Positions 444-20,117 of a stretch of DNA of 20,146 nucleotides are shown piece after piece. Origin of the DNA: Abditibacteriaceae bacterium (GTDB lineage Bacteria > Armatimonadota > Abditibacteriia > Abditibacteriales > Abditibacteriaceae); NCBI GenBank assembly GCA_031372065.1, contig JANMKN010000099.1, positions 1 through 20,146 of the forward strand. Direction: 5' to 3'. Every line of letters starts with the position of its first letter. Within the stretch, counting starts at the first letter, position 1. A model generated the notes under the pieces. It was not told the DNA's origin. It searched no databases and worked only from the letters and a program-made list of their open reading frames with translations. Both the position numbers and the translations under genes were made by a program.

Positions 444-488
444 AGGCCCAGAGCCGCGTTTCCCCGAAAAGGAAGCGCGGCTTTTTTT
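444..488 (+). terminator. Intrinsic terminator-like hairpin with conserved leader AGGCCCAGAGCCGCG (copy 1)
   Basis: Stem AGCCGCGTTTCC (452-463) / GGAAGCGCGGCT (471-482) with one G-U pair, 7-nt loop, followed by a T run. Confidence 0.8.
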
Positions 489-523
489 GTTTTTGCTTTG
501 CGCCTTTTGCTTTGAGGTCTTTT

Positions 524-886
524 ATGCCACTTCTTTCCGAACAGCAATTAATCGAACGCCACCGGCCCGGTTTGACGCATGACGCGGCGTATGCGCAAAA
601 GACTGTGGGTAGGGCGCAAACGCGCATCCACGGCCAACTGGCGCGGACACAAAGCCAGAACGCTGTGAATGTGCAGCGATTACAAGAGATCGTTGCTGCT
701 GCGGAGCAAAAGGGCGCGGCGTTGCAAAAGCAGTTGCCGCAGCTCTCGCAATTGGCTGATGTTGCGGTCGGCGAAGAACGGGACACATCGCACCGAAATT
801 ACCTGCAAGCCGTTCAGAATATCCAGCGTTGCACGCAAATTCGTGACGCGGCATCGCGAGAGCTAATTATAGCCCGCAACCATTGA
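524..886 (+). CDS. Hypothetical protein, 120 aa, Q/A-rich, probably alpha-helical/coiled coil
   Basis: GAGG upstream of ATG 524; fills the gap between the hairpin and the next gene; no recognised family. Confidence 0.65.
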   Translation: MPLLSEQQLIERHRPGLTHDAAYAQKTVGRAQTRIHGQLARTQSQNAVNVQRLQEIVAAAEQKGAALQKQLPQLSQLADVAVGEERDTSHRNYLQAVQNIQRCTQIRDAASRELIIARNH

Positions 887-909
887 TTGATTGATTTTAA
901 GGATTTAGC

Positions 910-1767
910 GTGACGGAACTTTTCGACCTCATTTCAACCAACGAACGTTTGACGAAAGGGCATGGCCCTGCACCCTTTCCTCCTCCCTACCCTGCCGAAA
1001 TTGTAGAGTTAGTTGTGCTTTCAGGGCGTGAAGCGCCGGGCGTATTGGCACCCGGCACCTATCGCTATGCGGCGATTGCGTTTTCTGGCGATGGGCAACG
1101 CGCGGCGCGGCGAGAAGCCCGCTGTTGTTGCGCCATTACAGAAGGGCAAAAACCAAGCATCGAAGCCTATACCACCGATTTAAACACGGTTGGTTTTGAG
1201 ATTTATCGGCAAGACGCTGATGAACCGAAAGAATCAACTGCATGGCTTCTTGTTGCGCGCCAGACGGGGCGCCACATCACCTTTGCAGATGATGGCAAGG
1301 CTCCCGGCGAGGCACTTTCGGTCGGGACTCAAATTGATTTGCTGGTTCACAAACATTCTCTGTTAAAGGCCACCAAAGAAGATGCTCTAAGCGGTGGGCG
1401 CTTTCTGCTGGATCACATAATGCGTTCGCTTGATGGTGAGATTCTGGCTACGGAAAAAACTCTGGCCCAACTCAAAACCCAATTCAGTCGTGAGATTCTA
1501 CATTTGATGATTTTCCAAGCGAATACAGCGGAGCTAAAGGCTTTCGTTCATCCGCAATCTTGTTCTGAGGGCGCGCTCTATGATTTGGCACTCGTTGAAT
1601 TGAATATGCGCCATGAGCTAAATAGCAATGAGACAACCAAACAAGAGGATTCCGACGAAGAATACGATGAAGATGATCGTGTTTTGGGCATTGAGAAAAT
1701 CCCGCACAGGCTTAAAGAGAGAAAACCTCCATTTCGCGCTTTGCGCAATCGTAGGAAATTGCCATGA
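910..1767 (+). CDS. Hypothetical, putative virion protein with FN3/Ig-like beta-sandwich domain
   Basis: Pattern GTYRYAAIAF..G ... GFEIYR ... LVA ... TFADDG resembles phage FN3-like domains; stop overlaps the next ATG (ATGA); LTKG and LLKA motifs flank the domain. Confidence 0.7.
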   Translation: MTELFDLISTNERLTKGHGPAPFPPPYPAEIVELVVLSGREAPGVLAPGTYRYAAIAFSGDGQRAARREARCCCAITEGQKPSIEAYTTDLNTVGFEIYRQDADEPKESTAWLLVARQTGRHITFADDGKAPGEALSVGTQIDLLVHKHSLLKATKEDALSGGRFLLDHIMRSLDGEILATEKTLAQLKTQFSREILHLMIFQANTAELKAFVHPQSCSEGALYDLALVELNMRHELNSNETTKQEDSDEEYDEDDRVLGIEKIPHRLKERKPPFRALRNRRKLP

Positions 1768-4700
1768 AATTTACAGTGCCTCTTGCCCTGTTTTTGAATC
1801 TAACCGAGAAGGTTGATTCTTTTCAAAAATCTATTTGCGCCGGGGAGCCTCCGTCTGGCTCTCCTGAAACGCCTTTTGCTGGCAGCAGCCATATGCCGCT
1901 GCTGCTGCTCGTCAACGAATTTTCCAAAGGTATCGGGTCGCGGCGCAATAATCCCCGCTTACAGCGTAAAAAAGTGTTGGTGCATGGCGCACAGGGCAAC
2001 TTGTTTTACGCCGAACGCTTGGTCGCACCTGATGAGTCGGCTGCATCGGGGTTTCAATTGCCGGAAGCGGGCAACACGCCACGTGTGCGGCAACGAAAAA
2101 GCGACAATGCCGCGCCGGTTTCGACCTCGGCGCCGGTGTCACAATCAAAGACTCAATCAACGTCAACAACTTCGACTTCGCCACCATCGTTATTTGATTG
2201 GGCCAACCAGCAAAAGCCGCAATTTACGCCACGCCCGAAAAAGGCAACGGGGCTTGCGCATTCATCCAATTCGCAAACCTCAACACTTTCACTTTTTGAT
2301 TTAATAGATGAGGGAGAATCGAGTAATGCAACCACAACTGGAAACGGGGCCGTCGTTACCAACGGAAGTGATGACAGCACAAGGCCCAGTCAAAATGCCG
2401 CTCATGACGAATCTGGACGAATGGGGCCGGGAGTTCGTGCGGACATGGACGCGCTGCCAACCGGAGACGGTAGCGCAGTGGATCAAGGACGGGACGCTGG
2501 GGCAGAGAGCGCGCGAGGCGCAGGAAGCGATGGCGGAGGAGATTTCGCTTCTGGTGGAACAGGGATTGACACTGCACGAAGCGAAGCACGACGCGACGAA
2601 GAAATATCTTCAGCCACCGGAAACGGAAGCGGAGATGCCGCAAGCGGAGATGCCGCACACGGAGAAGTAGAAGCGATGCCCGCCAAACGCACGGCACCGA
2701 AAGTTGCGGCGCGTGGCCTGAGCGACACCCAAAACAATGATGCCGATTTGGTTTTGACCGATGCCGACGAAATCGGCAAAGGATCGCTCGGCCAAAAGGC
2801 GAAAGACAACTTCGCGGCGTTGGATTTGTTGAAGCAGCTTGAAATTGAAGAGCGTGAACCTACCGATGCCGAAAAGCGCGTTTTGGCACATTATGTGGGC
2901 TGGGGCGCGTTCGGCCAAGCGTTTCAGGACGCTTTTGAACCCTATGCTGATGTCGAATGGAAGGACATCAGCGGCCACATCAAAACCTATCGTTTCAGTG
3001 GCGCTGATAAAGCGCACTTTGAGCTTTACAAACAAATCAAGTCACGTTTGACCGATGAAGAATTTGCCAGCGCGCGCGCTTCGATTAAAAATGCGCACTA
3101 CACAGCGCCGCCCGTTGTAAAAGCCATCTGGTCGGCATTGCAGCATATGGGCTTCACTGGCGGGCGCGTGCTGGAGCCTTCGATGGGAACGGGCAACTTT
3201 TTCGGGTTCATGCCGCCGGAGCTAACAGCGCGCAGTCGGCGCACCGGCGTTGAACTTGATCAAGTCACCGGCAAAATGGCGCGTTATTCGTATCCCGGCG
3301 CGCAAATCCACATCAAAGGTTTCGAGGAAACTCCCCTACCCGACAATCAATTCGACGTGGTGGTTGGTAATGTGCCCTTTGGCGATTATGGTGTCATTGA
3401 CCACGATTATGTCAAGCAGGGCCGTAAATTCTTAACAAGCCGCGTTCACAACTACTTTATTGCCAAAAGCATTGATAAGGCTCGGCCCGGCGGCATAATA
3501 GCCATCATCACATCGGCGGGCACTTTGGATGCCCGCACCGCGCAAGGCGTGCGTGAGGCGTGGGCTGATAAAGCGCATTTTCTGGGTGCGATCCGTCTGC
3601 CTAATACGGCCTTTGAAGAGAATGCCGGCACGCGGGTAACTACCGATATTATCTTTCTCCAGAAGAAAGACCCTGCTTTTGAAGCGTTGCACCCGCGCGA
3701 TGCAGAGGGGCATTTCATCGAAAAGTGGACGGAATCCGTTCCTGTGCAAGTGCGGCATAAAGATGACAAAGATGGCACTGGCCCCGACTACGCTGTGCAT
3801 CTCAATGAATATTTTCAAGCGCATCCCGATAATATGCTCGGCAAGTTGGCTGTCGGCGGCGGGCTTTACAACGACAAGCAAAGCGCTCTTGAAAGTGATG
3901 GGCGCGATATGGCTCTTGCTTTGGATGATGCTATTTTGTCGTTGCCTTCTGACATTTTTTATCGCCCCGAAGATGAAGCGGAGCGCGATGCGCAGGATCA
4001 ATTAAAACTGGCTGATGAAAGTATTAAGCCGGGCGCGTTTCACTTTGAAGATGGTGAAATCTACCAGAATCGCAACGGCCATCTGATGCCGGTTGATGTG
4101 AAAGACGCTAAAGAACGCAAGCGTCTGATGGGCCTCTGGCATCTGTGCCGCTCCTCCAAGGAACTGCTGGCCTCAATGTATGAAGATGTGCCCAATGAGG
4201 TGATTGAAGCGAAGCAGCAGCTTCTTAATCAGGCGTATGACAACTTCGTGCGCGAATTCGGGGACTTGCATAAGCGGCCCAACGTGCGCGCTTTCTGTTC
4301 TGACCCTGACGCTGGTTTGCTGCTGGCTTTGGAACACGCTGACCGCGAAACCGGCGCGATTTCCAAAGCGGACATTTTCTCGCAACGCACTATTACGCCC
4401 CACTCCACCGCCGAAACTGCATCTTCACCGCAGGATGCTCTGGGCATTGTTTTAAACGAATGCGGCGAACTGGATTGGCGGCGCCTCAGCGAACTGCTCA
4501 ATCGTGAGCCTGAAGGCATTCGTGATGAACTGGCCGGGGCCGGTCTTATCTTCCGTGACCCCGAAAAGGAAACCGACCCCGTTACCGCTGGTTGGGTGAC
4601 GGCTGATGCCTATTTATCGGGCGAAGTCAAGCAAAAGCTAAAAACCGCACAGGCCATTGCGGAAGTGGACGCTTCGTATAAGCCAAACATCGAAGCGCTC

Positions 4701-7700
4701 GAAGCGGTTCAACCACAGCCGCTTTTACCCTCGCAAATCGAAGTGCGGCTCGGCGCGCCTTGGGTGCCACCGCAGCACGTCAATGACTTCATCACGCATA
4801 TAGTGGGAACTGGTTACAGCAAGGATTTGGTGCAGTTTTCTAAGCATCTGGGCTGGACCATCAACGCGCTCGACCAATGGGATGCGCGGCGCGACAACGC
4901 GGCCATGACCAGCGCGTGGGGCACGCCTTCCATCAACGCCCTGAAAATCCTCGAAGCCACGCTCAATATGCGTGATGTCACGCTGACCAAACCTGACCCT
5001 AACGACCGGGAAGGTAAAAAGCGCGTCACCGATGTGGCGGCCACGCTCGCCGCGCGCGAGAAGCAGCGCCTTTTGAAAAATGAGTGGAAAAGCTGGATTG
5101 AAAATGATGCGGCGCGCCATGCGGGTTTGGCGGACCTTTACAACGAGATTTTCAACACAACGGCGCCGCGCGCCTTCGACGGATCTCATTTAACTTTTCC
5201 CGGCATGGCTGCTGGTTTTGCCAAAGGTTTTCGACAGCACGCAAAAAACGCTGTCTGGCGCGCCATTCAAACCGGCAACTGTTTGTTCGATCACGTTGTC
5301 GGCGCCGGTAAAACCGGCTGCATTGCTGCTACCACGATGGAACTGCGCCGCTTGCGTTTGGCAAAAAAGCCGATGATTGTGGTGAGGAATCCCCAGCTTG
5401 AGCAATGGGAGCGGGAATTTCGGGAAATCTATCCAAACGCCAAACTGCTGGTTATCAATGAAGGCATGGGCAAAGCCGAAAAGCGCCGGGAACTTACGCA
5501 TAAAATCGCGACAGGTGACTGGGACGCGGTCATCGTCGCGCAAAGCACTTTCAAAGAAATGCCTGCCTCGCCGCGCTTGTATCACGAGTTCATCGAAGAA
5601 CAATTGTGGGAATTACGCGCCGCGTTGGAAGAAGAAAATCAGCGTGCCTCAGCGCAAAACGGCAAAAAGAAATCGCGCTCACAGAAGAACATCGAAAAAT
5701 CCATTGCCAGCTTGGAAATCAAGCTGAAAACCATGCAGGCCGATGTCACAGAACATCAGGATCGCGGTTTGTATTTCGATGAGATGGGCGTGGATGCCCT
5801 GCTGGTAGATGAGGCGCACGACTACAAAAATTTGTTTTTCGCCACCAAGATGAACCGCGTTGCGGGCCTCAATAGTTCTTCATCGGAAAAGGCGATGGAC
5901 TTGTTTGTGAAGTCGCAAAATATGCTGAAGAAAAATAATCAGCGCGGACTCATCTTCGCCACTGGCACGCCGGTTAGCAATACGCTGGGCGAAATGTATA
6001 CGATGAAGCGCTATTTGATGCTGCCAAAACTCAAAGATTTGGGCTTTGACCGCTTCGACTCGTGGGCCGCGACTTTTGGCGATACGGTGACTTCGATTGA
6101 AAAGGCGCCTGAAGGCGGATTTCGACAACGCACGCGCTTTGCAAAATTCGTCAATGTGCCGGAAATGGTCGGCCTGTATCGTCAAGTCGCGGACGTGAAA
6201 ACCCGCGATGATTTAAAGGATATTTTGCCAACGCCTGCGCTCGATGGCGGCGAACCGAAAATCGTCACGGCGCCCGCCTCACCTGAACTCAAAGCCTACA
6301 TGGAAACGCTGCAAGAGCGCGCGAAAATTCTTCAAGTCGGCGATGAAAACGGGCGGCGCCCCCTGCCCAGCGAAGATAACTTTTTGCTGATTACCTCAGA
6401 TGGCCGCAAAGCCGCTTTGGATTTGCGTTTAATGGTGCCGGGCGCGCCAGATAATTCTCATTCCAAAGTCGCCAAATGTGTGGCGAATGTGGCACGCATT
6501 TACGGCGAAAGCAGTGACCGCAAAGCAACCCAGTTGGTATTTCTGGACATGGGCACGCCGACTGGCGAAGCAAATAAGGGAGCAAATAAAAAGTCCAAAC
6601 CCGCCAAAGTCATTGTGAAAGGCGCGGCCAAAGGTTTACCTGATGTTGATAATGATGATCTTGCCGATGACAATGACGAAGGTTTGGACGCGGAAGAACA
6701 GCGTTTGGTGGGCAGTGTTTACGATGACATCAAGCGAAAACTCATTGCCGCCGGCGTGCCCGAAAAAGAGATCGCTTTCGCGCATGATTTCAACACGCCC
6801 GCGCGCCGCAAGGAAATGAGCCGCCTGATGGATACCGGGCAGTTGCGCGTCCTAATCGGCTCTACTTCCAAAATGGGCGTTGGCCTCAATGTGCAGCGTC
6901 GCCTTTATGCTAATCATCATTTGGATTGCCCTTGGAAGCCCGGCGAACTGGAACAGCGTGATGGGCGCATCCTGCGCCAAGGGAATATGCATCACGAAAG
7001 CCAGTGGGATATTCCCGTTCAGATTTATCGCTACGGCACAGAAGGCTCGTTCGATGAATATATGTGGCAAGCTGTAGCAAAAAAGGCGGCGTTTATTGCT
7101 CAGACGCGGCAAGGCGAGTGCGCACGAACCTGCGAGGACATGGACGAAACTGTCATGACAGCCTCTTCCATGCAGGCGGCGCTTTCGGATAATCCGCTGA
7201 TGGGCGAAAAGGCGCAAGTGGACTCTGATGTTTATCGTATGACCCAATTGCGCAAAGGCTACCTTGATAATCGCTTTCGCGTGCAACGCCAATTGGCCGG
7301 TTTGCCCCGACAGCGCGACGAGGCGCTCAAAGACGCCGAAGACCGGGAACTGGCGGCTGTTCACTTCGATAAGCATCGTCAGGAGAAATTCTCGCTGATG
7401 GTGAACGGGCAGGTTTATGATGATCGCCACGAAGCGGGCGTGGCTCTTTCGCACGCTCATGAAGCCGTGTTAGACGCGCTCGATCATCCGCCGTATGAAG
7501 CGAAAATCGGTCACTATCAAGGCTTTGACATCTATGCACAAGTCGCACCTGACCAATGGAGCGAGTTTGACCCGCTGGTTTCCAATCTGGCCTATCAACT
7601 GCGCACGCCGGACGGCAAGGGAAAGCGTTGGTTACACGCGGGCAGTTCAGCCGCTTCAACCACAACCAAAATTGACAACACGCTGAAAAACTACGCTTTT

Positions 7701-8192
7701 GATGCTGCCGATGCGCGCCGCCACGCCGAAACGCTGTCCCAGCATATCGCGGAATTCAAGGCGATTGTGGATAAGCCGTTCGAGCATCAGGAACAATTGA
7801 ATGCTGCTGTCAAGCGTCAGAACGAAATTGACGCCGAACTCGCCAAAGGCAGCGATGCCGATACCGCTGTGGCAGACGAAGAAACTACAAACGATGCGGC
7901 TGGCGACACTAAAGTTGAAGGGGCGATTGTGGAAGACAAATTGACCAAATCCGTGGAAAGCCACTCAATGTTTGGCAATGGTCTATTGCGCTTGATGAAG
8001 GCCCTCAGTGCTACGGGCCGGGGCCGCTTGGTGGACGGAAACTTTGAATATGTGCCGCCTGAAATCCGCCAAAAGGAAGAAAATCAGCAAAAACAGTTCG
8101 CCGATCTTCGCTTGCTCTCGTCGCAGTTTGAAATCGTAAACAGATTTCCAAATGCGTTACCAAAGGAGTTTTCTCGTGAGCAAATATTATGA
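1764..8192 (+). CDS. DarB-like protein: N6-adenine DNA methyltransferase + SNF2-family helicase, with a long low-complexity N-terminal leader
   Basis: MTase motif I RVLEPSMGTGNF and motif IV GNVPF; helicase Walker A HVVGAGKT, Walker B VDEAH, ATGTP, motif VI QRDGRILRQGN; same architecture as phage P1 DarB and ICE MTase-helicases. Confidence 0.92.
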   Translation: MKFTVPLALFLNLTEKVDSFQKSICAGEPPSGSPETPFAGSSHMPLLLLVNEFSKGIGSRRNNPRLQRKKVLVHGAQGNLFYAERLVAPDESAASGFQLPEAGNTPRVRQRKSDNAAPVSTSAPVSQSKTQSTSTTSTSPPSLFDWANQQKPQFTPRPKKATGLAHSSNSQTSTLSLFDLIDEGESSNATTTGNGAVVTNGSDDSTRPSQNAAHDESGRMGPGVRADMDALPTGDGSAVDQGRDAGAESARGAGSDGGGDFASGGTGIDTARSEARRDEEISSATGNGSGDAASGDAAHGEVEAMPAKRTAPKVAARGLSDTQNNDADLVLTDADEIGKGSLGQKAKDNFAALDLLKQLEIEEREPTDAEKRVLAHYVGWGAFGQAFQDAFEPYADVEWKDISGHIKTYRFSGADKAHFELYKQIKSRLTDEEFASARASIKNAHYTAPPVVKAIWSALQHMGFTGGRVLEPSMGTGNFFGFMPPELTARSRRTGVELDQVTGKMARYSYPGAQIHIKGFEETPLPDNQFDVVVGNVPFGDYGVIDHDYVKQGRKFLTSRVHNYFIAKSIDKARPGGIIAIITSAGTLDARTAQGVREAWADKAHFLGAIRLPNTAFEENAGTRVTTDIIFLQKKDPAFEALHPRDAEGHFIEKWTESVPVQVRHKDDKDGTGPDYAVHLNEYFQAHPDNMLGKLAVGGGLYNDKQSALESDGRDMALALDDAILSLPSDIFYRPEDEAERDAQDQLKLADESIKPGAFHFEDGEIYQNRNGHLMPVDVKDAKERKRLMGLWHLCRSSKELLASMYEDVPNEVIEAKQQLLNQAYDNFVREFGDLHKRPNVRAFCSDPDAGLLLALEHADRETGAISKADIFSQRTITPHSTAETASSPQDALGIVLNECGELDWRRLSELLNREPEGIRDELAGAGLIFRDPEKETDPVTAGWVTADAYLSGEVKQKLKTAQAIAEVDASYKPNIEALEAVQPQPLLPSQIEVRLGAPWVPPQHVNDFITHIVGTGYSKDLVQFSKHLGWTINALDQWDARRDNAAMTSAWGTPSINALKILEATLNMRDVTLTKPDPNDREGKKRVTDVAATLAAREKQRLLKNEWKSWIENDAARHAGLADLYNEIFNTTAPRAFDGSHLTFPGMAAGFAKGFRQHAKNAVWRAIQTGNCLFDHVVGAGKTGCIAATTMELRRLRLAKKPMIVVRNPQLEQWEREFREIYPNAKLLVINEGMGKAEKRRELTHKIATGDWDAVIVAQSTFKEMPASPRLYHEFIEEQLWELRAALEEENQRASAQNGKKKSRSQKNIEKSIASLEIKLKTMQADVTEHQDRGLYFDEMGVDALLVDEAHDYKNLFFATKMNRVAGLNSSSSEKAMDLFVKSQNMLKKNNQRGLIFATGTPVSNTLGEMYTMKRYLMLPKLKDLGFDRFDSWAATFGDTVTSIEKAPEGGFRQRTRFAKFVNVPEMVGLYRQVADVKTRDDLKDILPTPALDGGEPKIVTAPASPELKAYMETLQERAKILQVGDENGRRPLPSEDNFLLITSDGRKAALDLRLMVPGAPDNSHSKVAKCVANVARIYGESSDRKATQLVFLDMGTPTGEANKGANKKSKPAKVIVKGAAKGLPDVDNDDLADDNDEGLDAEEQRLVGSVYDDIKRKLIAAGVPEKEIAFAHDFNTPARRKEMSRLMDTGQLRVLIGSTSKMGVGLNVQRRLYANHHLDCPWKPGELEQRDGRILRQGNMHHESQWDIPVQIYRYGTEGSFDEYMWQAVAKKAAFIAQTRQGECARTCEDMDETVMTASSMQAALSDNPLMGEKAQVDSDVYRMTQLRKGYLDNRFRVQRQLAGLPRQRDEALKDAEDRELAAVHFDKHRQEKFSLMVNGQVYDDRHEAGVALSHAHEAVLDALDHPPYEAKIGHYQGFDIYAQVAPDQWSEFDPLVSNLAYQLRTPDGKGKRWLHAGSSAASTTTKIDNTLKNYAFDAADARRHAETLSQHIAEFKAIVDKPFEHQEQLNAAVKRQNEIDAELAKGSDADTAVADEETTNDAAGDTKVEGAIVEDKLTKSVESHSMFGNGLLRLMKALSATGRGRLVDGNFEYVPPEIRQKEENQQKQFADLRLLSSQFEIVNRFPNALPKEFSREQIL
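2326..2670 (+). CDS. Nested (+1 frame) 114-aa ORF inside the DarB-like gene; TnpV/DUF1896-like helical protein
   Basis: GAGGGAG (2310-2316) 9 nt before ATG 2326; amphipathic globular-looking sequence (WGREFVRTW...PETVAQWIKDGTL...LVEQGLTLHEAKHDATKKYLQPPE), while the host frame here is G/D/S/A-rich low complexity. Confidence 0.6.
   Translation: MQPQLETGPSLPTEVMTAQGPVKMPLMTNLDEWGREFVRTWTRCQPETVAQWIKDGTLGQRAREAQEAMAEEISLLVEQGLTLHEAKHDATKKYLQPPETEAEMPQAEMPHTEK
2627..2656 (+). repeat. 15-bp exact tandem duplication AAGCGGAGATGCCGC x2
   Basis: 2627-2641 and 2642-2656 are identical; length is a multiple of 3, so both overlapping frames are preserved. Confidence 0.9.
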
Positions 8193-9531
8193 CCCCTTTT
8201 GCCCCAATTTAAGCAAGGCTGTGGCCTCTGGTTATCCCCTGCAAGGCCGGTTGAATTTTCAGGGTTTGAAGATTTCAATTGAGAATCGCAAGGGTTCTTA
8301 TCGCGAAGACAAGCATCACTCGCCTCCAAAATGGCGCAGTAAAATGTTTTGTCACTATGGCTACGTCAAAGGCAGCGAAGGCGTAGACGGCGATCATGTG
8401 GACGTGTTCGTGGGGCCTAATCCGGGCGCAACGCACGCTTACATCATCACGCAAGTGAAACCCTACAGCGGCGAATTTGACGAGCAGAAAATCATGCTCG
8501 GTTTTGATTCGGCCAAAGACGCCAAAGAAATGTATATGCGGCATTATGATACACCCAAATTCTTCGGCGGCATCGCGGCCATGCCGATGGCAGAATTCAA
8601 AAGCAAGGTGATGCACACGCTACACGGCTCCAAACTGATTAAATCGGTGTCAGGCAAGCCTTATTCGCCTACTTTATGCGCTGCCCTACTCTGCAAGGCC
8701 ATCGTGGTCGGTGGTGGCGAGGATTGCCCGCATTGCGGTGCCAGTATGGAGCGCGGCGACGATGGGAAATGCAACCGCTGCTTAAAACCGTGGCCGGCGG
8801 CAACCTTAGCCGTGCCGCACCCAGACGCCGATGGAGGCTGTAAAGGCAATTGCCCGCACTGCGGCACAACGATATTCGCTGATTCGGGGGAGAAACGCCG
8901 TCTTTGCCATCAATGCAGAGCGCCGTTTGACGTGATTCCGCAAGGCAAAAGCTACAGGTTGGAACCTCTCAAAAAATCGGTGGCCGCATTATCACAGGAG
9001 ACGATAGGGGCCTTGGGCAGTGTGAAATGGGTTTTGCCTTCGGCGTTTGAATTGGGCAAGGGCATCGGAGAAGAACTCGCCAAAAGTTTTAAAAGCCTCG
9101 AAGCCAAATTAGCGCCGTTCGGTTTAGGCTTGACTGACTTTTTGAAGAAACCGGATGATTCATATTATCCGCTTCCTGAAGGTGAACCGGTCATTTACAC
9201 CACGCCGGAAGTGCGACGTATTGTTTTAGCGCACGCCATGCAAGCTGCCCTGAAAATCACTCAACATCCTAAAGCGGTTATCGAAGTTGCGCGCGCGCGT
9301 CTGGCGCAAGGCGAAAGCATCGCCAATCAATTCTACGGCGGCGGGGTGGGAATGGAAAATCATCTGGCGATTTTGGCGGCCATTGAAATGACACCGACAG
9401 AGTTTCGTTTAGCTCTGGCGCGCTTGAAAGGTGAAATCACAAATGAACCGACGGACGAACTTGTGGACAGTGAGGCAGTGATCAGTGAAACACTCGCGCC
9501 GGAATTAGCGCCGGGCGAAATTGCGCTTTAG
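8176..9531 (+). CDS. InPase (inorganic pyrophosphatase-like) domain protein with two Zn ribbons
   Basis: GTG 8176 after AAGGAG; signature GLKISIEN.KGS.R...W...M..HYGYV.G..G.DGDHVDVFVGP...FDEQKIMLGF; CPHC..CNRC and CPHC..CHQC pairs. Confidence 0.85.
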   Translation: MSKYYDPFCPNLSKAVASGYPLQGRLNFQGLKISIENRKGSYREDKHHSPPKWRSKMFCHYGYVKGSEGVDGDHVDVFVGPNPGATHAYIITQVKPYSGEFDEQKIMLGFDSAKDAKEMYMRHYDTPKFFGGIAAMPMAEFKSKVMHTLHGSKLIKSVSGKPYSPTLCAALLCKAIVVGGGEDCPHCGASMERGDDGKCNRCLKPWPAATLAVPHPDADGGCKGNCPHCGTTIFADSGEKRRLCHQCRAPFDVIPQGKSYRLEPLKKSVAALSQETIGALGSVKWVLPSAFELGKGIGEELAKSFKSLEAKLAPFGLGLTDFLKKPDDSYYPLPEGEPVIYTTPEVRRIVLAHAMQAALKITQHPKAVIEVARARLAQGESIANQFYGGGVGMENHLAILAAIEMTPTEFRLALARLKGEITNEPTDELVDSEAVISETLAPELAPGEIAL

Positions 9532-9830: not shown

Positions 9831-10246
9831 AACCCGATATGAATAATGTTCACATCCCACAATTAGAAGCCAAATGTCACTTGCGCCACTTGAAGATTTA
9901 TTATTCCAATGGCGAAGTGCAGGATTTCGAGGGAATTTTTCGCGGGCCTATTTTCTTGGAAACTGGCGAGGTTTTTGTCATGGTCAGCGTGCCGCAGAGC
10001 CAACGGCACCGGGACGCCACGAACGCTTTTAATGAGATGGTGGGCCTTGAACCTTTGTGTGTTGTTGTAGATGTGCTCGGCGGTGCCGTGCTTTATGAGC
10101 CGCGCAGTGTAGAGCCAGAACGTTTTGCGCCTCCCATTTTGAAGTATTTAGATGAGAATCCGGCGTGGCCTGCCATGCTGGAAATGAGCCATCCGAAAGA
10201 AGAAGAAAACGGAATTCGTTTTCTTTTGGGCGAAATGCCAAAATAA
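9824..10246 (+). CDS. Hypothetical protein (~140 aa; start may be ATG 9839)
   Basis: Overlaps the upstream stop and ends in the terminator arm; normal composition; no family recognised. Confidence 0.7.
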   Translation: MVKPDMNNVHIPQLEAKCHLRHLKIYYSNGEVQDFEGIFRGPIFLETGEVFVMVSVPQSQRHRDATNAFNEMVGLEPLCVVVDVLGGAVLYEPRSVEPERFAPPILKYLDENPAWPAMLEMSHPKEEENGIRFLLGEMPK

Positions 10247-10283
10247 AAGGGAGGCGATAGCTAATGTCGCCTCCCTTTTATTT
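10241..10283. terminator. Bidirectional intrinsic terminator between convergent blocks
   Basis: 17-bp perfect inverted repeat AAATAAAAGGGAGGCGA / TCGCCTCCCTTTTATTT, 9-nt spacer, T tracts on both strands. Confidence 0.9.
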
Positions 10284-10808: not shown

Positions 10809-11681
10809 TCACGCCACATCCAACAAAACCAACTGCTTTTTCTCCTCGGCCCGCTGGCGTTCCAAACGTTGGGCAGCAACGGGATTGAGCCATAAAACTT
10901 CGGTGCGTGGTGCGTTGCTCTGGGCGCGAGCCTGCGTCTCGAATCGCTTCCAGTGCCCTAACATTTCATCGTAAAGACCTGAATGATAGCCAGACAACAA
11001 AACAGGCCCCGGATGCGCTTCCAGCGCTTGCAAAAGCGCTTTGTGCCCTTCGTCGTCCATTTCATGAGCATAAAGGCGCCGCTGGCGTGTTGATAAATGG
11101 TAAGGCGGGTCGGCATAAATCAACACGTCTGCATTGGCGTGGCGCGCGATGACATCCAAGGCGGGGCGATTTTCAATTTGCGCTTGTAACAAGCGTCCGG
11201 CAGCGTAGCGCACTCGATCCGGCAGGCGATGCCATGTCGCCACCGGCGACTGGTCTTCTGCGCAACGTGAACGCCATCCACTGGTGACGGTTCGTTGCTG
11301 CGACGCACAGCCCGCGCGCTGCCCGATGCTTTGCCACATGGACACCGCTAACCGGCGTGCCCGTTCGACGCGATTGCCGCGCGGCTCGCCCAAACGCCGT
11401 CGGCAAAAAACATACTCCGCGCGTGCCCATGGTGTTAGCTCCAAGGCCGCTGCCAATTCATGGGGTTTATCCCGCACCACGCGAAAGAAGTTAACAAGTT
11501 CGCCGTCGCGGTCATTGAGCATTTCCACGTTGGACGGCTCCTTGTTGAAAAAGACGGCGCCGCTGCCAAAATATGGTTCAATATAGCAATCATGCTGCGG
11601 CATATGGCCGATAATCCACTCCGCGATATTCCATTTGCTACCCGGCCATTTGAGAGTCGGGGCATTGAGTTGTGTGGTCAC
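10809..11681 (-). CDS. DNA adenine methyltransferase (Dam/D12-class), orphan
   Basis: GTG 11681 after AAGGAG; LKWPGSKW, motif I EPYFGSGAV, motif IV DPPY; no restriction endonuclease recognised nearby. Confidence 0.92.
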   Translation of the reverse strand: MTTQLNAPTLKWPGSKWNIAEWIIGHMPQHDCYIEPYFGSGAVFFNKEPSNVEMLNDRDGELVNFFRVVRDKPHELAAALELTPWARAEYVFCRRRLGEPRGNRVERARRLAVSMWQSIGQRAGCASQQRTVTSGWRSRCAEDQSPVATWHRLPDRVRYAAGRLLQAQIENRPALDVIARHANADVLIYADPPYHLSTRQRRLYAHEMDDEGHKALLQALEAHPGPVLLSGYHSGLYDEMLGHWKRFETQARAQSNAPRTEVLWLNPVAAQRLERQRAEEKKQLVLLDVA

Positions 11682-12270
11682 GATTCGTTTCTCCTTCCTC
11701 TGGATGAATGTCAAATTGCAGCGGTTCGGGAATGCCGGCGAAGGTGAGATAGCGCAGCATTTGCAGCACGCCAGACAAGGGCAAAGGAAGCCCTTTCTCT
11801 TCGTCCTTGGTGAACGGCGTGCCATATTCTTTACAATCTTCGGCAGGTTCTTCGTCGAGTCGTTCCGGTTTCATGTAAGAATGGAATTTGAACGGCATAC
11901 ATTCGATAAGGAATTCATGCAAATACAAATTGCGCTCGCTGAAAATGCCGGTGCCATCGCATCTCTCGCACTGATCCATGCCGCCAAAGCCGTAATCATA
12001 AGCCATGCCACTGCCGTCACAGTCCCAGCACTTTCGTGTTTCCACGCGTGCAATGCGGCCCCGCGTTAGGTCTGGTTGATGTTCCTGAATCCACAAGTCT
12101 TTGCACTGGTAGAAGCGCAGTCGCGTGTTACGGCAAGAATTGGTTTTCACAAGGCGGTTGCCTGTAAAAACAGCGGCGGCAATGGCGAGTTCATCGCTGG
12201 TGTGCAGCGCACGCCAAGCGTGCCATAGTTCAGGACTGCTCATTTTCGACCAATTAGGAATGCGGCTCAT
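11638..12270 (-). CDS. Hypothetical, YkyB-like protein with an inserted DnaJ-type Zn finger
   Basis: AAGGAGG before ATG 12270; CWDCDGSG and CERCDGTG (CxxCxGxG x2); flanks AVFTGNRLVKT..Y..K and FKFHSY resemble YkyB (tentative). Confidence 0.7.
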   Translation of the reverse strand: MSRIPNWSKMSSPELWHAWRALHTSDELAIAAAVFTGNRLVKTNSCRNTRLRFYQCKDLWIQEHQPDLTRGRIARVETRKCWDCDGSGMAYDYGFGGMDQCERCDGTGIFSERNLYLHEFLIECMPFKFHSYMKPERLDEEPAEDCKEYGTPFTKDEEKGLPLPLSGVLQMLRYLTFAGIPEPLQFDIHPEEGETNRDHTTQCPDSQMAG

Positions 12271-12609
12271 TGGCTGGGGCCTCCTTGAAATCAACGCCGG
12301 TCAAATCCACCCTACCCCACTTTTGTGAGCCACGGTAAGGCAATGGTTCCTCAAGTTGGCGCGCATTTTCTAAAAGCCATCCAAAGCGGCCCTGCTCGTA
12401 GTTGCCATAAATGCCTTCTCGCTCACTGATGGTTTTTGCCAATTCTTCAGTGGGCAGACAATCAATGAGGTCAACAACAGCAATCACACAACCAAAATGC
12501 ATCGTATGCCCCTTTAAATCACAACGCAATGGCTCCAGGAGACGCGCTTTGGATTGCCCTTCTTCTTTCACCGTGAAGAATTTGAGGTGCTTTTTGGTTT
12601 TGGCTCGTG
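12254..12609 (-). pseudogene. ASCH-domain gene, 3' half only
   Basis: FGCVIAVVDLIDC...E...GNY..GRFGWLLEN...L..PLPYRGSQ is the ASCH C-terminal half; the N-terminal QPWA..GxKxxExR motif and a good RBS/start are missing. Confidence 0.7.
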
Positions 12610-13224
12610 CGTTGGCTCCGGCCATGTAATACGGCCTTTCTTGCGCGCCTGAAGGAAAAAGCGTTTGCGCGCTGTGGCCGCGCCGAAATAGGCGGAATTC
12701 AAAACCCGGTAATCCACCTTGTAACCGCGAATTTTGAGTTGCTTTATCCAGTTTTTGAAAAACAGCCCCTTCTTTTCAGGAATCGGACGCCCGCGTTTTT
12801 TCTCATCGGAATGATCGTCAGGATACAGCGGCCCCCAGTTCATGAACTCCGGCACGTTTTCGACGAGAATGTTATCAATGTTGACTTCCTCGGCCCAGCG
12901 AATGACACACCACGCCGTTGCCCTACTCTGCTCGTTCATGGGCTTGGCGCCTCTGGCTCTGGCGTGATGAGTGCATTCCGGCGCGAACACGGCAAAATGC
13001 AGATGGCCGTCCGGCACAATTTTGCGGGGCCAAACGGAATCCAAGTTCTCGCACCAGTGGCGCACGTTAGGATGATTCAGCGAATGCGTTTCAATGGCGG
13101 TGGCCCAGTGGTTTACGGCATCCACTTCGATGTTAATACCCAGTTCCTCGCACGCTTCCAATAAACCACTTGTGCCACCTCCTGCTCCGCAAAAGAAATC
13201 TCCGGCTTTGATAGTGATTTTCAT
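12568..13224 (-). pseudogene. DNA cytosine-C5 methyltransferase, N-terminal half (truncated)
   Basis: Motifs I (DFFCGAGG), IV (PEC), VI (ENVPEF) and VIII (TARKRFF) present; ends about 12 aa after WPEPTH with no TRD or motifs IX/X; ATGA coupling at 13221-13224. Confidence 0.8.
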
Positions 13225-13517
13225 CGCTTGGCCTCGCTTGTGGGTAAACAAAGATGCATCCATGTTTCTTGTCCCCAATGCTGCCAGAAACGGTCATTCC
13301 AATCCGTGGCGCTCTCGCAATTGGGGCAAACGCCGGTATTGGTGCTGTGCCACCGGGGGCCAAACATCCATGTTGTTCCGGGGTGTGTCTGCTGACGGGC
13401 ATCGCACATGGCGCATACATCAGATTTCTCAGATGTGGAGTCAGGTTGGATAATGTCTTTGCAGACGCGGCATACAGCAATGGCTTGAAGCGATTCGTCG
13501 TTCATTAAATGGCTCAT
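13221..13517 (-). CDS. Hypothetical Cys-rich protein, 98 aa (three CxxC pairs)
   Basis: AGGAGG before ATG 13517; CRVC, CAMC, CPNC; stop coupled to the MTase start. Confidence 0.7.
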   Translation of the reverse strand: MSHLMNDESLQAIAVCRVCKDIIQPDSTSEKSDVCAMCDARQQTHPGTTWMFGPRWHSTNTGVCPNCESATDWNDRFWQHWGQETWMHLCLPTSEAKR

Positions 13518-13674
13518 AACGGCACCTCCTGAACTTCACGCGGATATGAATCCGCGATGCTTGGCAGCTCGTCCACGCATCGCGCACGGCTTGCACCAAA
13601 TGAGGCACTGCATCGCGTGTATAACTGTTTTCCGCCACCTGTTTTTCCAGTGCCTCTAACTCATGACTCCACAT
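13441..13674 (-). CDS. Small hypothetical protein, probably frameshifted near 13573 (likely original stop at 13514-13516)
   Basis: AAGGAG before ATG 13674; as read it overlaps the next gene by 77 nt, while a one-base shift gives a stop coupled (ATGA) to ATG 13517. Confidence 0.5.
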   Translation of the reverse strand: MWSHELEALEKQVAENSYTRDAVPHLVQAVRDAWTSCQASRIHIRVKFRRCRYEPFNERRIASSHCCMPRLQRHYPT

Positions 13675-16914: not shown

Positions 16915-16921
16915 GTCTTTG

Positions 16922-16966
16922 AAAACCTGTTGGTGAATTTTTGCAGGGGGAAACACTTCCCCTGCA
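16922..16966 (-). promoter_or_regulatory. Minus-block intergenic motif (copy A) plus adjacent inverted repeat
   Basis: AAAACCTGTTGGTGAATTTTTGCAG (16922-16946) is 24/25 identical to 17873-17897; TTCCCCTGCA (16957-16966) is also shared. Confidence 0.7.
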
Positions 16967-16994
16967 CCATCGCTTGCAGATCTGCCAATTGCGC

Positions 16995-17120
16995 TCAGTA
17001 GCGGCGCTCTGTGCCGCGTCCGCCGCAACGGGGGCAAGAGCCGCCGCCATCCTCGCTAATGTGGTCTAATTCGTCTTCCGGCAGTTCGTCGTGGTCATGT
17101 TCACCATAAAATCGGGGCAT
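16995..17120 (-). CDS. 41-aa acidic peptide with a single CxxCxGxG motif (not in ORF track)
   Basis: AAAAAGGAG 6 nt before ATG 17120; MPRFYGEHDHDELPEDELDHISEDGGGSCPRCGGRGTERRY*. Confidence 0.6.
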   Translation of the reverse strand: MPRFYGEHDHDELPEDELDHISEDGGGSCPRCGGRGTERRY

Positions 17121-17145
17121 ATTCGTCTCCTTTTTGTCGCCATGA

Positions 17146-17175
17146 GGGGCCGGACTTGATTTTTAGTCCGGCCCC
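17146..17175. other. 11-bp GC-rich hairpin after the SWIM gene (terminator, pause or RNA-stability element)
   Basis: GGGGCCGGACT / AGTCCGGCCCC with an 8-nt loop; no U tract follows on the - strand. Confidence 0.6.
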
Positions 17176-17185
17176 GCTGTCGTTT

Positions 17186-17785
17186 TCAATCGAAATAGCT
17201 GTTGTAATCCCAATCGCCATTAGGCAGATAACCGGGCTTCAATTCGCCGGTTTCGGGGTCAATGTGAGGCGGCACCGCAATTTTTTCAACAGGCGAGGCT
17301 TGCGCGTGGGTGAGATGCAAAACCTTTTCAGCATCGCGCCGCAGTTCGCCGCGCCGCACGCAACCTTCAATGAACCGCTCCAAATGCTTGCAATGCAAAA
17401 GCGGCGTTTTGATGCTAATCGTGATGCCTAATTTCTTGGCAGTGGGGTTCAAGCGATAGAAAGAATGCTCGCAGTTGCAACGGCATTCGCCCGTTACAAG
17501 GTCAACTTCGGGGCGATGTTCAATGCCTTCATCGGCGCGTGTGAATGACTTGGTGACGCCACAAGCGATTTCGGGCGTGGTTTCGGCGCGGCGAACACGA
17601 CGGCGAATTGGGGTAGGGTTGTAAGAGCGGGTTTTGCGGTGCGGGCGGACAAAGGTGTCATACGGGCCGCGCCGTGTCTCGTTGTTGGCAACGGCGGAGC
17701 CGACGACGGGCTTTTGGGTTGGTGCGACTTGTGTTGTCTCTTGCGTTGCGGCTTGCGTTGTAACGTCTGTCTGTTGATACTTCAT
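17186..17785 (-). CDS. SWIM zinc-finger protein, 199 aa
   Basis: C.CNCEHSFYR ... HCKHL (CxCx(n)CxH); GGAG upstream of ATG 17785. Confidence 0.8.
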   Translation of the reverse strand: MKYQQTDVTTQAATQETTQVAPTQKPVVGSAVANNETRRGPYDTFVRPHRKTRSYNPTPIRRRVRRAETTPEIACGVTKSFTRADEGIEHRPEVDLVTGECRCNCEHSFYRLNPTAKKLGITISIKTPLLHCKHLERFIEGCVRRGELRRDAEKVLHLTHAQASPVEKIAVPPHIDPETGELKPGYLPNGDWDYNSYFD

Positions 17786-17872
17786 CTTGAATCAATTCTC
17801 CAATCCGGTTTTGGTTACGATTGAGGCGCCAACTTTTCCAGAGTGGGGCGCCTTTTTCGTTTTACACTTCTA

Positions 17873-17927
17873 AAAACCTGCTGGTGAATTTTTGCAGAAA
17901 TTTACATGAAAATTCCCCTGCAAAAAT
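17873..17927 (-). promoter_or_regulatory. Minus-block intergenic motif (copy B) plus 10-bp inverted repeat
   Basis: AAAACCTGCTGGTGAATTTTTGCAG (17873-17897); IR ATTTTTGCAG (17888-17897) / CTGCAAAAAT (17918-17927). Confidence 0.7.
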
Positions 17928-17933
17928 ATCTTT

Positions 17934-18608
17934 TTATTTTTCCTTTTGCGGCAACGTTTCTTGTGGCGTCCCTTGTGGCGTTCGGGCTTTCAAATCTGTC
18001 AAGGCGAAATCAATTTCGCACGCCATTTGCGTGGTCTGGCAATGAATCCAGCGATAAGTTGAGGCGAAAAACGCCACAAGATCGCAGTGCCATAAAGCCG
18101 CATCTTGGGGTGGGTTGGCATCAAAGGAATGGTTGAGATAATTGCCGATTTGCGGCAATAGGAAATCAAAGTGATGGATTGTTTGCTTTAGCTTGTAATG
18201 ACGGCGCGCGCGCCATGCCGACGGGCTTTGGGCCTCGTATAAAACTGTGAAGTCGTTTAATTCCAGTGCCCCAAAGGTATTGTTCCAGCGTTGGAGAAGT
18301 TCGCTTTCAGAGGGCACCCGCGTAAATAGTTCAACAGGCCAGAAATTGACGACAATTGGCTCTATGCGGCTCATCAGACGAATCAAGCATTCATCAAGGC
18401 GTTGTAACTGCTGTGTTAGAAAGGCACTTTCAGCAGGCTGCTGTGTGGGCATTGTTGCGCTTCGGGGGACAGGATTAGCATTTGCCCCCGCATTCACCCC
18501 CGTATTCACCCCCGCAGTGGCATAGCCGTTAGTGACAGGAGACTGACCGCCGGTGCGGAATCTGTTATGGAATTCGTCATGGAATCCGTTTTGGTTGTGT
18601 TGACTCAT
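17934..18608 (-). CDS. Hypothetical protein, 224 aa, low-complexity N-terminus
   Basis: First ORF of the - strand block, divergent from the protease gene; no family recognised. Confidence 0.7.
   Translation of the reverse strand: MSQHNQNGFHDEFHNRFRTGGQSPVTNGYATAGVNTGVNAGANANPVPRSATMPTQQPAESAFLTQQLQRLDECLIRLMSRIEPIVVNFWPVELFTRVPSESELLQRWNNTFGALELNDFTVLYEAQSPSAWRARRHYKLKQTIHHFDFLLPQIGNYLNHSFDANPPQDAALWHCDLVAFFASTYRWIHCQTTQMACEIDFALTDLKARTPQGTPQETLPQKEK
18479..18514 (+). repeat. Three imperfect 12-bp tandem units encoding GVNT-GVNA-GANA
   Basis: CATTTGCCCCCG CATTCACCCCCG TATTCACCCCCG. Confidence 0.8.
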
Positions 18609-18628
18609 GATGCCCTTTTATAATGCCC

Positions 18629-18658
18629 TTGACGGAAAGAGGATTTTAGCGTTAGAAT
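18629..18658 (+). promoter_or_regulatory. Sigma70-type promoter for the head operon
   Basis: TTGACG (18629-18634), 18-bp spacer, TAGAAT (18653-18658); 5/6 match to each consensus hexamer; in the divergent intergenic region. Confidence 0.65.
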
Positions 18659-18705
18659 CCCATTTGTATTTGTCGTGATTCACAATTCTGATTTACAACT
18701 TGATG

Positions 18706-18750
18706 AGGCCAAGAGCCGCGTTTTTCTCTTTGAGAAGGGCGCGGCTTTTT
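18706..18750 (+). terminator. Terminator-like hairpin with leader AGGCCAAGAGCCGCG (copy 2), promoter-proximal attenuator
   Basis: Stem AGCCGCGTTTTTCTC (18714-18728) / GAGAAGGGCGCGGCT (18732-18746) with three G-U pairs, followed by TTTT. Confidence 0.75.
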
Positions 18751-18766
18751 CATTCTACATTGATGT

Positions 18767-18784
18767 TGTGAACCATGGTTCACA
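18767..18784. promoter_or_regulatory. 18-bp perfect palindrome TGTGAACCATGGTTCACA (copy 2)
   Basis: Identical to 416-433; 100 nt upstream of the protease ATG. Confidence 0.75.
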
Positions 18785-18883
18785 TTACAGCAAAAAACAG
18801 CACATGAAAACAACATGGAAACCAATCCCAATAAAAATTGAATTCATTGGATTCGATTAATGACCTGATGCCGGAGGCCAAAC

Positions 18884-20023
18884 ATGGCCCTGCCCGTTCC
18901 CATTCCGCCTGTAGAATTTGCCCATGAAGCAGCGTATGCAGCCGTGCATCCAGTAGCTTATGCAAATGAGCCAGTGCGCGAGATCGAAATTTATTTAGAG
19001 CTTCAAAAAAGCCATGTAGATAAAAAAACCGGGCGCATTTGGGTTCGCGGTGTAGCGACGGATAACAGTGTTGATTTTCAGAATGACATCGTTCAGATTT
19101 CGCAGATCGGGACAAACCTCTCTATCCTTAACCGGGGCTGGGGCAAGTTCAATTTTGAGCATCACGATGAAAAAGTCGGCGAAATTACCCGAATTGCCTT
19201 TATCTCGCCGGCAGAAGCGCGTGCCAAATACGGCGTTGAGTGCAGCGGAACAGTGTTGGAGTTGGAAGGATTTATCTATGCGGTCACTGACAAAACGCCG
19301 GAAAAATCGGATGTGCGCGAAGTTCACAGACTTATTGACGTGGACGCGCGACTGGGTTTTTCGCTGCAAGGCGGCATCGTGCAACGTATTCCTGTGCAAG
19401 GCAAGGATGGTAAGACTTACAAAGTCGCTGTGCCTTCGTTCGTAAACCTCTGCGCGATTACGACGCAGCCAGTCAACATGAACACGATTTGCCTGCCGTT
19501 TGCCAAATCGTTAGCCGCTGTTCTCTGTGAAGGCGGCTTAAGCGAAGCAGAGTGGGCTGTGGTCAGCGAGGCCAGTGAAGCAGATGGCGGGACTGCCTCC
19601 GGGACGAATAAACCGGCGCCGATGCTGTTCATGGGCGACGGGGCCGGGGTAGACGATTTGATTAAATCGCTGGTGGGAGCGGCATTGGCCTCAACCGGTG
19701 GTCAGGCTTTAGTGGGCGCTTTAGGCGGTGACAGCGTGCGTATGGGGGCCGTAGACCCGAAAAGCGTGGACGACACAACTGACGACAAGAAATCTGCAAA
19801 ATGTCACAAATGTGCCACTTCCTTGAGTAAAATGACGAAGTTCTGCCCCGAATGCGGTGCGGCGCAAAGCAGTGCGCAAAGCACGATGCAGCCGGAATTA
19901 AAAAAATCGCTGGTGAATGCCTCGGCTGGATTTTCCCAAAACTTTGGCATCTCGGAATGTGAACAGGCGATAGACATCATAATGGCGGCGCAAATTTTCA
20001 TGAGCGCTTTGGGTCGCAATTGA
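18884..20023 (+). CDS. Prohead (head maturation) protease with a C-terminal Zn ribbon
   Basis: GGAGG RBS; VRGVAT...VDFQND, FNFEH (putative catalytic His), LGFSLQG (putative catalytic Ser), AITTQPVN..T; CHKC...KFCPECG. Confidence 0.85.
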   Translation: MALPVPIPPVEFAHEAAYAAVHPVAYANEPVREIEIYLELQKSHVDKKTGRIWVRGVATDNSVDFQNDIVQISQIGTNLSILNRGWGKFNFEHHDEKVGEITRIAFISPAEARAKYGVECSGTVLELEGFIYAVTDKTPEKSDVREVHRLIDVDARLGFSLQGGIVQRIPVQGKDGKTYKVAVPSFVNLCAITTQPVNMNTICLPFAKSLAAVLCEGGLSEAEWAVVSEASEADGGTASGTNKPAPMLFMGDGAGVDDLIKSLVGAALASTGGQALVGALGGDSVRMGAVDPKSVDDTTDDKKSAKCHKCATSLSKMTKFCPECGAAQSSAQSTMQPELKKSLVNASAGFSQNFGISECEQAIDIIMAAQIFMSALGRN

Positions 20024-20038
20024 GGAATTAAACCACAG

Positions 20039-20066
20039 AGACAATCAGGAAGTAGACAATCAAGAA
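20039..20066 (+). repeat. 13-bp direct repeat AGACAATCA(G/A)GAA x2
   Basis: 20039-20051 and 20054-20066, 12/13 identical, immediately before hairpin copy 3. Confidence 0.7.
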
Positions 20067-20067
20067 C

Positions 20068-20117
20068 AGGCCCAGAGCCGCGATTCTCCATTGGAGAAAA
20101 GCGGCTCATTTGTTTTT
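20068..20117 (+). terminator. Terminator-like hairpin with leader AGGCCCAGAGCCGCG (copy 3)
   Basis: GAGCCGC (20075-20081) / GCGGCTC (20101-20107) plus TTCTCC/GGAGAA inner stem; followed by ATTTGTTTTT. Confidence 0.7.

Follow-up and report, generated by a model that had tools for sequence, protein, structure and literature searches.

Why should the same terminator-like hairpin, each time carrying the same short leader, stand in front of one gene start after another? The question is raised by a 20,146-nt contig of an Abditibacteriaceae bacterium (GCA_031372065.1, JANMKN010000099.1), hereafter the window, which is contig C284 of a 6.14-Mb genome in 410 contigs (G000). The 15-mer AGGCCMAGAGCCGCG occurs on its + strand at 444, 18706 and 20068 without mismatches, as a first-pass annotation of the sequence had reported. 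At up to two mismatches there are exactly three occurrences in the window, against a mean of 0.15 and a maximum of 2 in 100 shuffles, and this is the top direct-repeat family of the window. All three copies fold into a hairpin with a U-rich tail behind it (z -3.4 to -5.5), and the + strand starts described downstream of copies 1, 2 and 3 (ATGs at 524, 18884 and 20135) are correctly placed. Contigs from public sequencing runs (three DNA runs of one study, one of which may be the source of this DNA) that span copies 1 and 2 show no difference from the window, indicating that the assembly is correct. We propose, with modest confidence and from sequence comparison, that these elements are gates: predicted intrinsic terminators before late phage genes, each of which would be opened locally and sequence-specifically by a phage factor that binds the leader, in the manner of RAT/LicT. 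The gates of the window, and a leaderless hairpin that serves as an internal control, are the following.

444..494, + strand: gate copy 1, with leader A-GGC-CCAGA-GCC at 444-455 and a predicted 3-bp mini-hairpin (445-447 with 453-455).

453-481, + strand: terminator-shaped hairpin of gate copy 1, its foot overlapped by the leader, with a U-rich tail at 482-494.

18706..18750, + strand: gate copy 2, with leader A-GGC-CAAGA-GCC at 18706-18717, hairpin at 18715-18745 and U tract at 18746-18750.

20068..20117, + strand: gate copy 3, with leader A-GGC-CCAGA-GCC at 20068-20079, hairpin at 20077-20105 and tail to 20117.

10241..10283, no strand assigned: long bidirectional terminator-like hairpin without leader at a block end, between convergent genes.

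The leader had been described as including unpaired bases ahead of the stem. Only its first six nucleotides, AGGCCM, are outside the stem, as AGAGCC is paired with the 3' arm and the first bases of the tail. The hairpin at 10241-10283 does lack the motif and looks like a terminator in either direction. Copy 2 lies in a divergent region without an upstream + strand gene, 138 nt before the protease start. The stem of copy 3 has a 2x2 internal loop, and the next start follows 29 nt downstream.

The window belongs to a larger element. Six contigs of G000 (C284, C246, C408, C38, C282 and C370) derive from one phage-plasmid, C246 overlapping the window start (141 nt, 100%) and C408 its end (101 nt, 91%). 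Together they encode RepA, an integrase-family protein, ParA, ParB, an S24 repressor, both terminase subunits, endolysin, portal, major capsid protein, helicase and a DarB-like protein. By its gene content this is a large temperate phage equipped with replication and partition genes of plasmid type. The family of three copies is true of the window but falls short in extent: G000 holds 13 leader copies, all on the six phage contigs and all facing late genes. They precede the terminase block, endolysin, portal, a large helicase, the block of a 120-aa gene and the DarB-like gene (copy 1), the protease (copy 2), a scaffold-like gene (copy 3 and its allele), a post-capsid gene, a tail-tube-like gene, two tail genes and a holin-like gene, the labels scaffold, tail tube and holin being given from position and size only. 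C408 begins with a variant of copy 3 that has a perfect stem, and the 91% overlap suggests that the two are probably alleles. The same overlap (window 20046-20146 and C408 1-101) probably reflects two phage strains in the sample.

The leader sets these hairpins apart from those of the host. Among GCC-opening hairpins with a U-rich tail, a filter that caught 9 of the 13 G000 copies, the full leader was present in 9/9 on phage contigs and 0/196 on host contigs. Ten host hairpins open with GAGCC, mostly behind A-rich letters and without the leader, suggesting that this stem foot is ordinary and that the AGGCC part is phage-specific. The first-pass annotation had named a REP-like host repeat as the finding that would overturn its reading; across the 196 host hairpins of G000, no such scatter through intergenic DNA in both orientations was seen.

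Relatives of this phage extend the pattern. The capsid gene was found in 5 of 401 genomes of the phylum, all of one family (G000, G001, G006, G022 and G023). Gate copies number 13 in G000, 11 in G001, 11 in G023, 7 in G022 and 7 in G006, those of G001, G022 and G023 being counted with the variant pattern RGCC-N2-4-GAGCC on the fetched contigs. Exact 12-mer matches number 12 in G001, 8 in G023, none in G022 and one in G006 (reversed control, 0), of which 9/12, 4/8 and 0/1 form hairpins in G001, G023 and G006, respectively. A covariance model, a check that had been proposed for the element, was built from 12 G000 copies and scanned over 27 genomes of the family: the 31 matches that outrank all others lie on phage contigs, although 12 of these 31 are the training sequences and the lower matches are mostly generic hairpins by model range. 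In the relatives the copies lie on the strand of the virion genes, ahead of terminase, portal, protease, capsid-region, tail and lysis genes. The position before morphogenesis genes, where gating was first suggested, is borne out and wider than reported, with copies before both virion and lysis genes across the five phages.

On the 107-kb contig of G023 all 11 leader hairpins lie on the virion-gene strand before late genes, and hairpins without the leader occupy block ends (33581, 42695, 91623), the early strand (95294, 76398) and accessory regions. Gate positions partly turn over between phages: G023 gates its capsid gene, whereas G000, G001 and G022 gate the scaffold-like gene. Meanwhile, the most distant relative, G006 (capsid about 43% identical), has a 100-kb phage contig without the AGGCC motif. 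It carries instead seven hairpins that all face the late direction and have GGC-AUUAC-GCC, or a sequence close to it, as their leader. The loop AUUAC replaces CCAGA at these seven sites, several of which are orthologous to those of the other phages (pre-terminase, pre-protease, post-capsid). The G006 leader has six exact matches, all on the phage contig and on one strand, and one match elsewhere at one mismatch. Common to both lineages are GGC, a spacer of 4-7 nt and a GCC that opens the stem. The loop at orthologous sites is as expected if reader and sites change together.

Beyond these five phages, pattern counts were near the reversed control, without a cluster, in G002 and G003 and in five further genomes of the family without the capsid gene, and capsid-based searches of viral and metagenome contigs returned no relative. 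An exact-pattern scan of IMG/VR gave 34 loci with one exact match each, nearly all without a U-tract hairpin as judged by eye; two near-identical loci (L017 and L029) are lone terminators. Hence these loci lend no support to a spread beyond this group.

The structure of the gate is that of an RNA element. Across the 12 G000 copies 97.5% of stem cells are paired, compared with 39-48% in slid controls, and 6 of the 10 pairs have changed on both sides; the kinship of the sequences inflates the shuffle test of this covariation. Over 46 copies G-U pairs outnumber A-C mismatches by 35 to 2, so that the claim of a + strand RNA structure, made from inner stems that differ and still pair, is upheld. 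Pairs 2-3 are CC/GG in 46/46 copies, an invariance partly built in because the search pattern required GCC and GG, and pairs 5-7 are variable. The copies consist of a GC-rich hairpin with a U-rich tract directly behind it on the coding strand, the sequence features of an intrinsic terminator. The U tract stays at the stem while the distance from stem to start codon (ATGs picked by script) varies from 11 to 151 nt; it is at most 35 nt in 24 of 45 copies and at most 55 nt in 39. Such distances leave little room for a promoter, and the genes behind those 24 likely depend on read-through. A -10-like hexamer lies 8-50 nt upstream of 18/46 copies, compared with 8.8 in shuffles, suggesting that some gates probably follow a promoter of their own and others follow a gene.

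The core of the leader is GGC-loop-GCC, with a loop of 4-7 nt, mostly 5, and a GCC that doubles as the foot of the terminator stem (46/46 copies, by construction). The GGC/GCC mini-hairpin has 3 bp and a predicted energy in nascent RNA of about -3.4 kcal/mol, and forcing it costs 9.2 kcal/mol on average relative to the terminator fold. In the three copies of the window its predicted formation leaves the upper stem intact and removes the U-tract-adjacent pairs, which would explain an inner stem free to vary. The letter before the motif is A or G in 40/40 copies (A in 37), the spacer is CA, AA or CT in 30/40, and positions upstream of the leader show no conservation. An alternative description of the leader is a direct repeat, RRGCC-N2-4-GAGCC, that would be read as single-stranded RNA. 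In several single folds CAGG and the tail form a lower stem; pairing between the leader and bases past the U tract was not supported (5/46 copies, 2.9 in shuffles). Nor was a trans antisense RNA found, the leader having no complement outside the motifs' own reverse strand except one match in a coding region. The Rfam scan that the first-pass annotation had called for yielded no gathering-score match on five phage contigs, the best window matches (E 0.18 or worse) being far below gathering.

How might such gates work? By default, host polymerase would stop at the U tract, keeping virion and lysis genes off in the plasmid-prophage state. As the leader emerges, its GGC would pair with the terminator-opening GCC, forming a 3-bp hairpin too weak to win alone. 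A trans-acting reader may then recognise the loop, or RRGCC-N2-4-GAGCC, and hold it, so that the U-tract-adjacent pairs could not form. Opening would take place separately at each gate rather than once per operon. Local, factor-opened gates are suggested by the need for read-through, by a tag on nearly every late terminator but not at block ends, by a lineage-wide loop swap and by the weakness of the competing fold. The stems are also long (8-21 bp, mean 11.9), and in the conAn system long stems resist processive antitermination (excerpts of PMC10325885). The regulated class of phage terminators first suggested is supported in part, as a phage-specific, RNA-type hairpin that marks late-gene terminators and is missing from block ends and early blocks, while the - strand genes of the window, then offered as regulators, are poor candidates for the factor: in profile comparisons each is missing from at least one phage, and all are missing from G006.

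Our best candidate for the reader, put forward tentatively, is a Cys/His protein of 113 aa that belongs to no known family and whose gene lies just upstream of the terminase block (C282 8456-8797 in G000, about C4 78259-78573 in G006). The protein contains a CxxC, a basic HSKGK...RGRW stretch and a CDxGH, and it is the one shared non-structural candidate. Its gene occurs in 6 of the 401 genomes, namely the five capsid-gene carriers and, as a remnant, G021. In G000, G023 (with one gene inserted) and G006 it lies directly upstream of a TATAAT site, a gate and the terminase. The protein has 11 library relatives and a confidently predicted fold (pLDDT 82.5), no Pfam family and atlas matches below 0.9; one of 16 members has a single weak, unnamed PHROG match. 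A comparison of its first model with the PDB gave no fold match (best Z 3.0), and its best viral matches have E 0.13-0.32, the one at 0.13 being a small zinc ribbon named Elf1-like. A more specific version, which we consider slightly less probable still and offer as a speculation, is that about a dozen tagged terminators per genome are each opened by a new RNA-binding zinc-ribbon protein that reads the 5-nt loop on a 3-bp hairpin, loop and protein changing together to yield orthogonal pairs (CCAGA and AUUAC types).

Known antiterminators were sought alongside. Pfam scans of 21, 52 and 106 selected phage open reading frames (ORFs), which omitted those under about 55 aa and some large ones, gave no antiterminator family. 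The CAT RNA-binding domain PF03123 was found in 0/5 genomes (completeness 85-94%; positive controls matched in 4/14). The ANTAR domain was likewise found in 0/5 genomes, but control genomes also gave no match, and none of the scanned phage proteins matched it. DUF2292 and the Com zinc-ribbon had no above-cut-off match in the five genomes and none on phage contigs. A 'Q-like' PHROG match at window 11638-12294 was discarded, being weak, covering only a DnaJ-type zinc finger and belonging to a gene that, among the five phages, only G000 and G001 were found to carry. Another candidate for a late regulator is a conserved 116-aa gene upstream of the Cys/His gene (C282 7977-8327). To judge by eye, G006 has a comparable ORF in that position; the gene has no family or atlas match above 0.8.

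Several observations weigh against these proposals. Hairpins without the leader also occur inside late blocks, after the capsid gene in G023 (53993) and G022 (3128) and at G023 57274. The mini-hairpin is weak, exceeding a probability of 0.5 in only 24/46 nascent-prefix folds; its GGC/GCC pairs show no compensatory change, and AGC replaces GGC in 5/40 copies of G000, G001, G022 and G023, breaking the outer pair without compensation. The inner stem of G006, TGCAAGTACTTGCA, is itself a repeat present in many hairpins with and without the leader, including bidirectional ones, suggesting that unit copying shaped the G006 set and making it weaker as independent evidence. Only five related phages were found, and all are kin. 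As for the reader, in G022 and G021 the Cys/His gene abuts the terminase with no gate between, and the G022 protein lacks the CxxC, suggesting that this may be a gene of the packaging block.

The proposed gates are reminiscent of several known systems. RAT overlaps the 5' arm of its terminator and is a hairpin of roughly 30 nt with internal loops, and ANTAR sites are tandem hairpins with hexaloops, short stems bearing conserved loops. According to excerpts of PMC9614035, binding of CAT to RAT results in antitermination, and binding of ANTAR to nascent RNA disrupts an intrinsic terminator. BglG, SacY and LicT would thus share with the gates local read-through by a protein-bound RNA element at an intrinsic terminator, and AmiR, EutV and NasR the disruption of a terminator via nascent RNA (excerpts of PMC9614035), both being predicted here. 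The gate differs from RAT/CAT in the lack of a CAT family or Rfam match, in being an element of about 11 nt with a 3-bp stem, and in its use 7-13 times per phage genome before virion genes rather than in sugar operons; it differs from ANTAR sites in having one mini-hairpin, with a loop of 4-7 nt and no conserved upstream partner. In lambda the Q gene lies before pR', much as the candidate gene lies upstream of a promoter-like site, a leader terminator and the terminase. With lambda N (nut-boxB), lambda Q and pLS20 conAn the likeness lies in terminators inside late or conjugation operons that are overcome by a factor of the mobile element and in long-stem block ends (excerpts of PMC8191782 and PMC10325885). 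Those systems ignore the sequence of the terminator, whereas here the tag is part of each one. A literature search, with most subscription papers beyond its reach, found no description of the element.

Could the leader act without any factor? The GGC/GCC mini-hairpin might compete kinetically with the stem foot, and the terminators, leaky as a result, would fix the proportions in which virion proteins are made. In most copies a short nascent prefix is predicted to fold into the mini-hairpin, longer prefixes doing so less often, and the failure to find a known antiterminator family would also fit. We nevertheless regard this as improbable. Tuning in cis leaves unexplained the unpaired letters that are kept within a lineage and swapped between lineages, as well as their absence from host hairpins, and after a run of a dozen leaky stops little transcription would reach distal genes unless every stop had its own promoter, while -10-like hexamers are seen in fewer than half of the copies.

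A shade less probable than cis tuning is processive antitermination, by which the leader would be a boxB- or nut-like loading or pausing site and a modified polymerase would ignore later terminators. The lambdoid boxB is a small hairpin with a lineage-specific loop, a likeness that counts for this explanation, as do the leaderless in-block hairpins that must be passed and the weak resemblance of the Cys/His protein model to the viral zinc ribbon named Elf1-like. Block ends also bear long bidirectional stems (window 10241-10283), and in excerpts of PMC10325885 it is this feature that withstands processive antitermination. Processive systems pass terminators regardless of sequence (excerpts of PMC10325885 and PMC8191782), and a tag fused to the stem on nearly every terminator would then be redundant. 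Moreover, NusG is encoded once per genome and never on the phage contigs, and the Q family PF06530, the only Q family searched, was found in 0/5 genomes.

The first-pass annotation had also offered RNA processing, which we consider less likely than antitermination and, taken together with a role in translation, quite unlikely: a nuclease or activator acting at the leader would yield a protective 5' hairpin followed by a U-rich landing tract for ribosomes. At gates on G022 C12 and C23 and on G023 C91, many late starts lie 11-30 nt past the stem, behind a U-rich tract and with no evident Shine-Dalgarno by eye, which would suit such a role. The U tract, however, keeps to the stem and not to the start codon, which is 138 nt off at window copy 2 and 146 nt off in G001; some copies are preceded by divergent regions, where no upstream gene is present to be detached (window 18706, C370 14307), and the ribosome site is not covered by the stem. 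Finally, a neutral or DNA-level repeat, whether a terminator unit copied around the phage or a DNA-binding or promoter element overlapping terminators, is very improbable, since, despite the shared inner stem of G006, the four other phages keep the leader but have inner stems that covary and differ without restriction, every copy points towards the late genes, the G-U bias marks one strand, and both motif spacing (2-4 nt) and start distance are too variable for a fixed promoter geometry.

The remaining features of the window lie around the gates.

372..400, + strand: promoter-like site TGGTCA-17-TAAAAT, a 9/12 consensus match only, 44 nt upstream of copy 1.

416..433, no strand assigned: palindrome TGTGAACCATGGTTCACA, a separate phage-specific DNA repeat adjoining copy 1.

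524..886, + strand: 120-aa gene behind copy 1, with homologues in all five phages.

18629..18658, + strand: promoter-like site TTGACG-18-TAGAAT, a 10/12 consensus match only, 48 nt upstream of copy 2.

18767..18784, no strand assigned: second copy of palindrome TGTGAACCATGGTTCACA, downstream of copy 2.

18884..20023, + strand: likely prohead protease gene behind copy 2, kept in all five phages, with a weak PHROG match to a head maturation protease (E 3.9e-5).

20135..20146, + strand: gene start behind copy 3, continuing on C408 directly before the major capsid gene; scaffold-like by position only.

Promoter-like sites number 16 in the window against 12.7 in shuffles, so that they carry little weight as evidence. 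The gene at 524..886 heads a block with the DarB-like gene (1764-8192) and a gene with an InPase domain (8152-9531). The DarB-like methylase-helicase (2142 aa) and the InPase-domain protein (window 1764-9531), both behind gate 1, likely represent virion-packaged anti-restriction functions. On the - strand, a C-5 methylase ORF of 236 aa (12568-13278) covers the first part of the family model only and may be truncated.

The palindrome was overlooked by the first-pass annotation. TGTGAACCATGGTTCACA occurs twice in the window, against 0.02 expected. The form (T/G)GAAC-N4-GTTC(A/G) is also present at C282 13694, C370 3812 and 14347, and C408 3076 and 7409, as well as in G023 C91 (7 sites), G001 and G006 C4 (2 sites). 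Almost all of its sites are on phage contigs, where they are scattered and in part lie within genes, and it is kept in G006 despite the other terminator loop. Likely roles are parS-type centromeres bound by the phage ParB or operators of a repressor; several of the palindromes lie near promoters and gates. GAAC-N4-GTTC is the form of a LexA box; this identity was considered and rejected, as phage contigs hold 7 of the 8 GAACC-NN-GGTTC sites of G000, in some cases inside genes.

Other regions of these phages vary. In G023 C91 (66123-68762, 77259-77975, 78879-80315) and in G000 (end of C408, C38 and C370 14477-15820) lies a region where a second copy of the end of a tail gene is present 10 kb downstream, with a conserved gene of 447-478 aa of no known family at the border. 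The neighbouring tail cassette differs between relatives, possibly a region of tail-fibre switching or exchange. Accessory genes that vary between phages (C282 2939-7823 and 12998-13684; G023 C91 69444-74350; G006 C4 66553-67215) include DUF4365, PadR, HEPN AbiU2, a block of PIN, AAA ATPase and methylase, and a 2H phosphoesterase with a weak Acb1 (anti-CBASS) match. In the phage remnant on G021 C11, an identical short hairpin-containing repeat occurs three times (153077, 153278, 159054), once at a break in the small terminase gene, and these repeats are probably the ends of an inserted element.

Textbook late switches of phages modify the polymerase once (Q, N) or act at promoters. Terminator-by-terminator gating with a minimal tag would be a distinct way to silence, and then jointly open, the virion and lysis genes of a plasmid-prophage. 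The tag spans about 11 nt, is compatible with any inner stem and comes in two forms in nature, which makes it directly open to testing by loop swaps. If protein-dependent, such gates may provide compact, orthogonal on-switches for synthetic biology, and the proposal would assign a function to an unannotated family of phage proteins.

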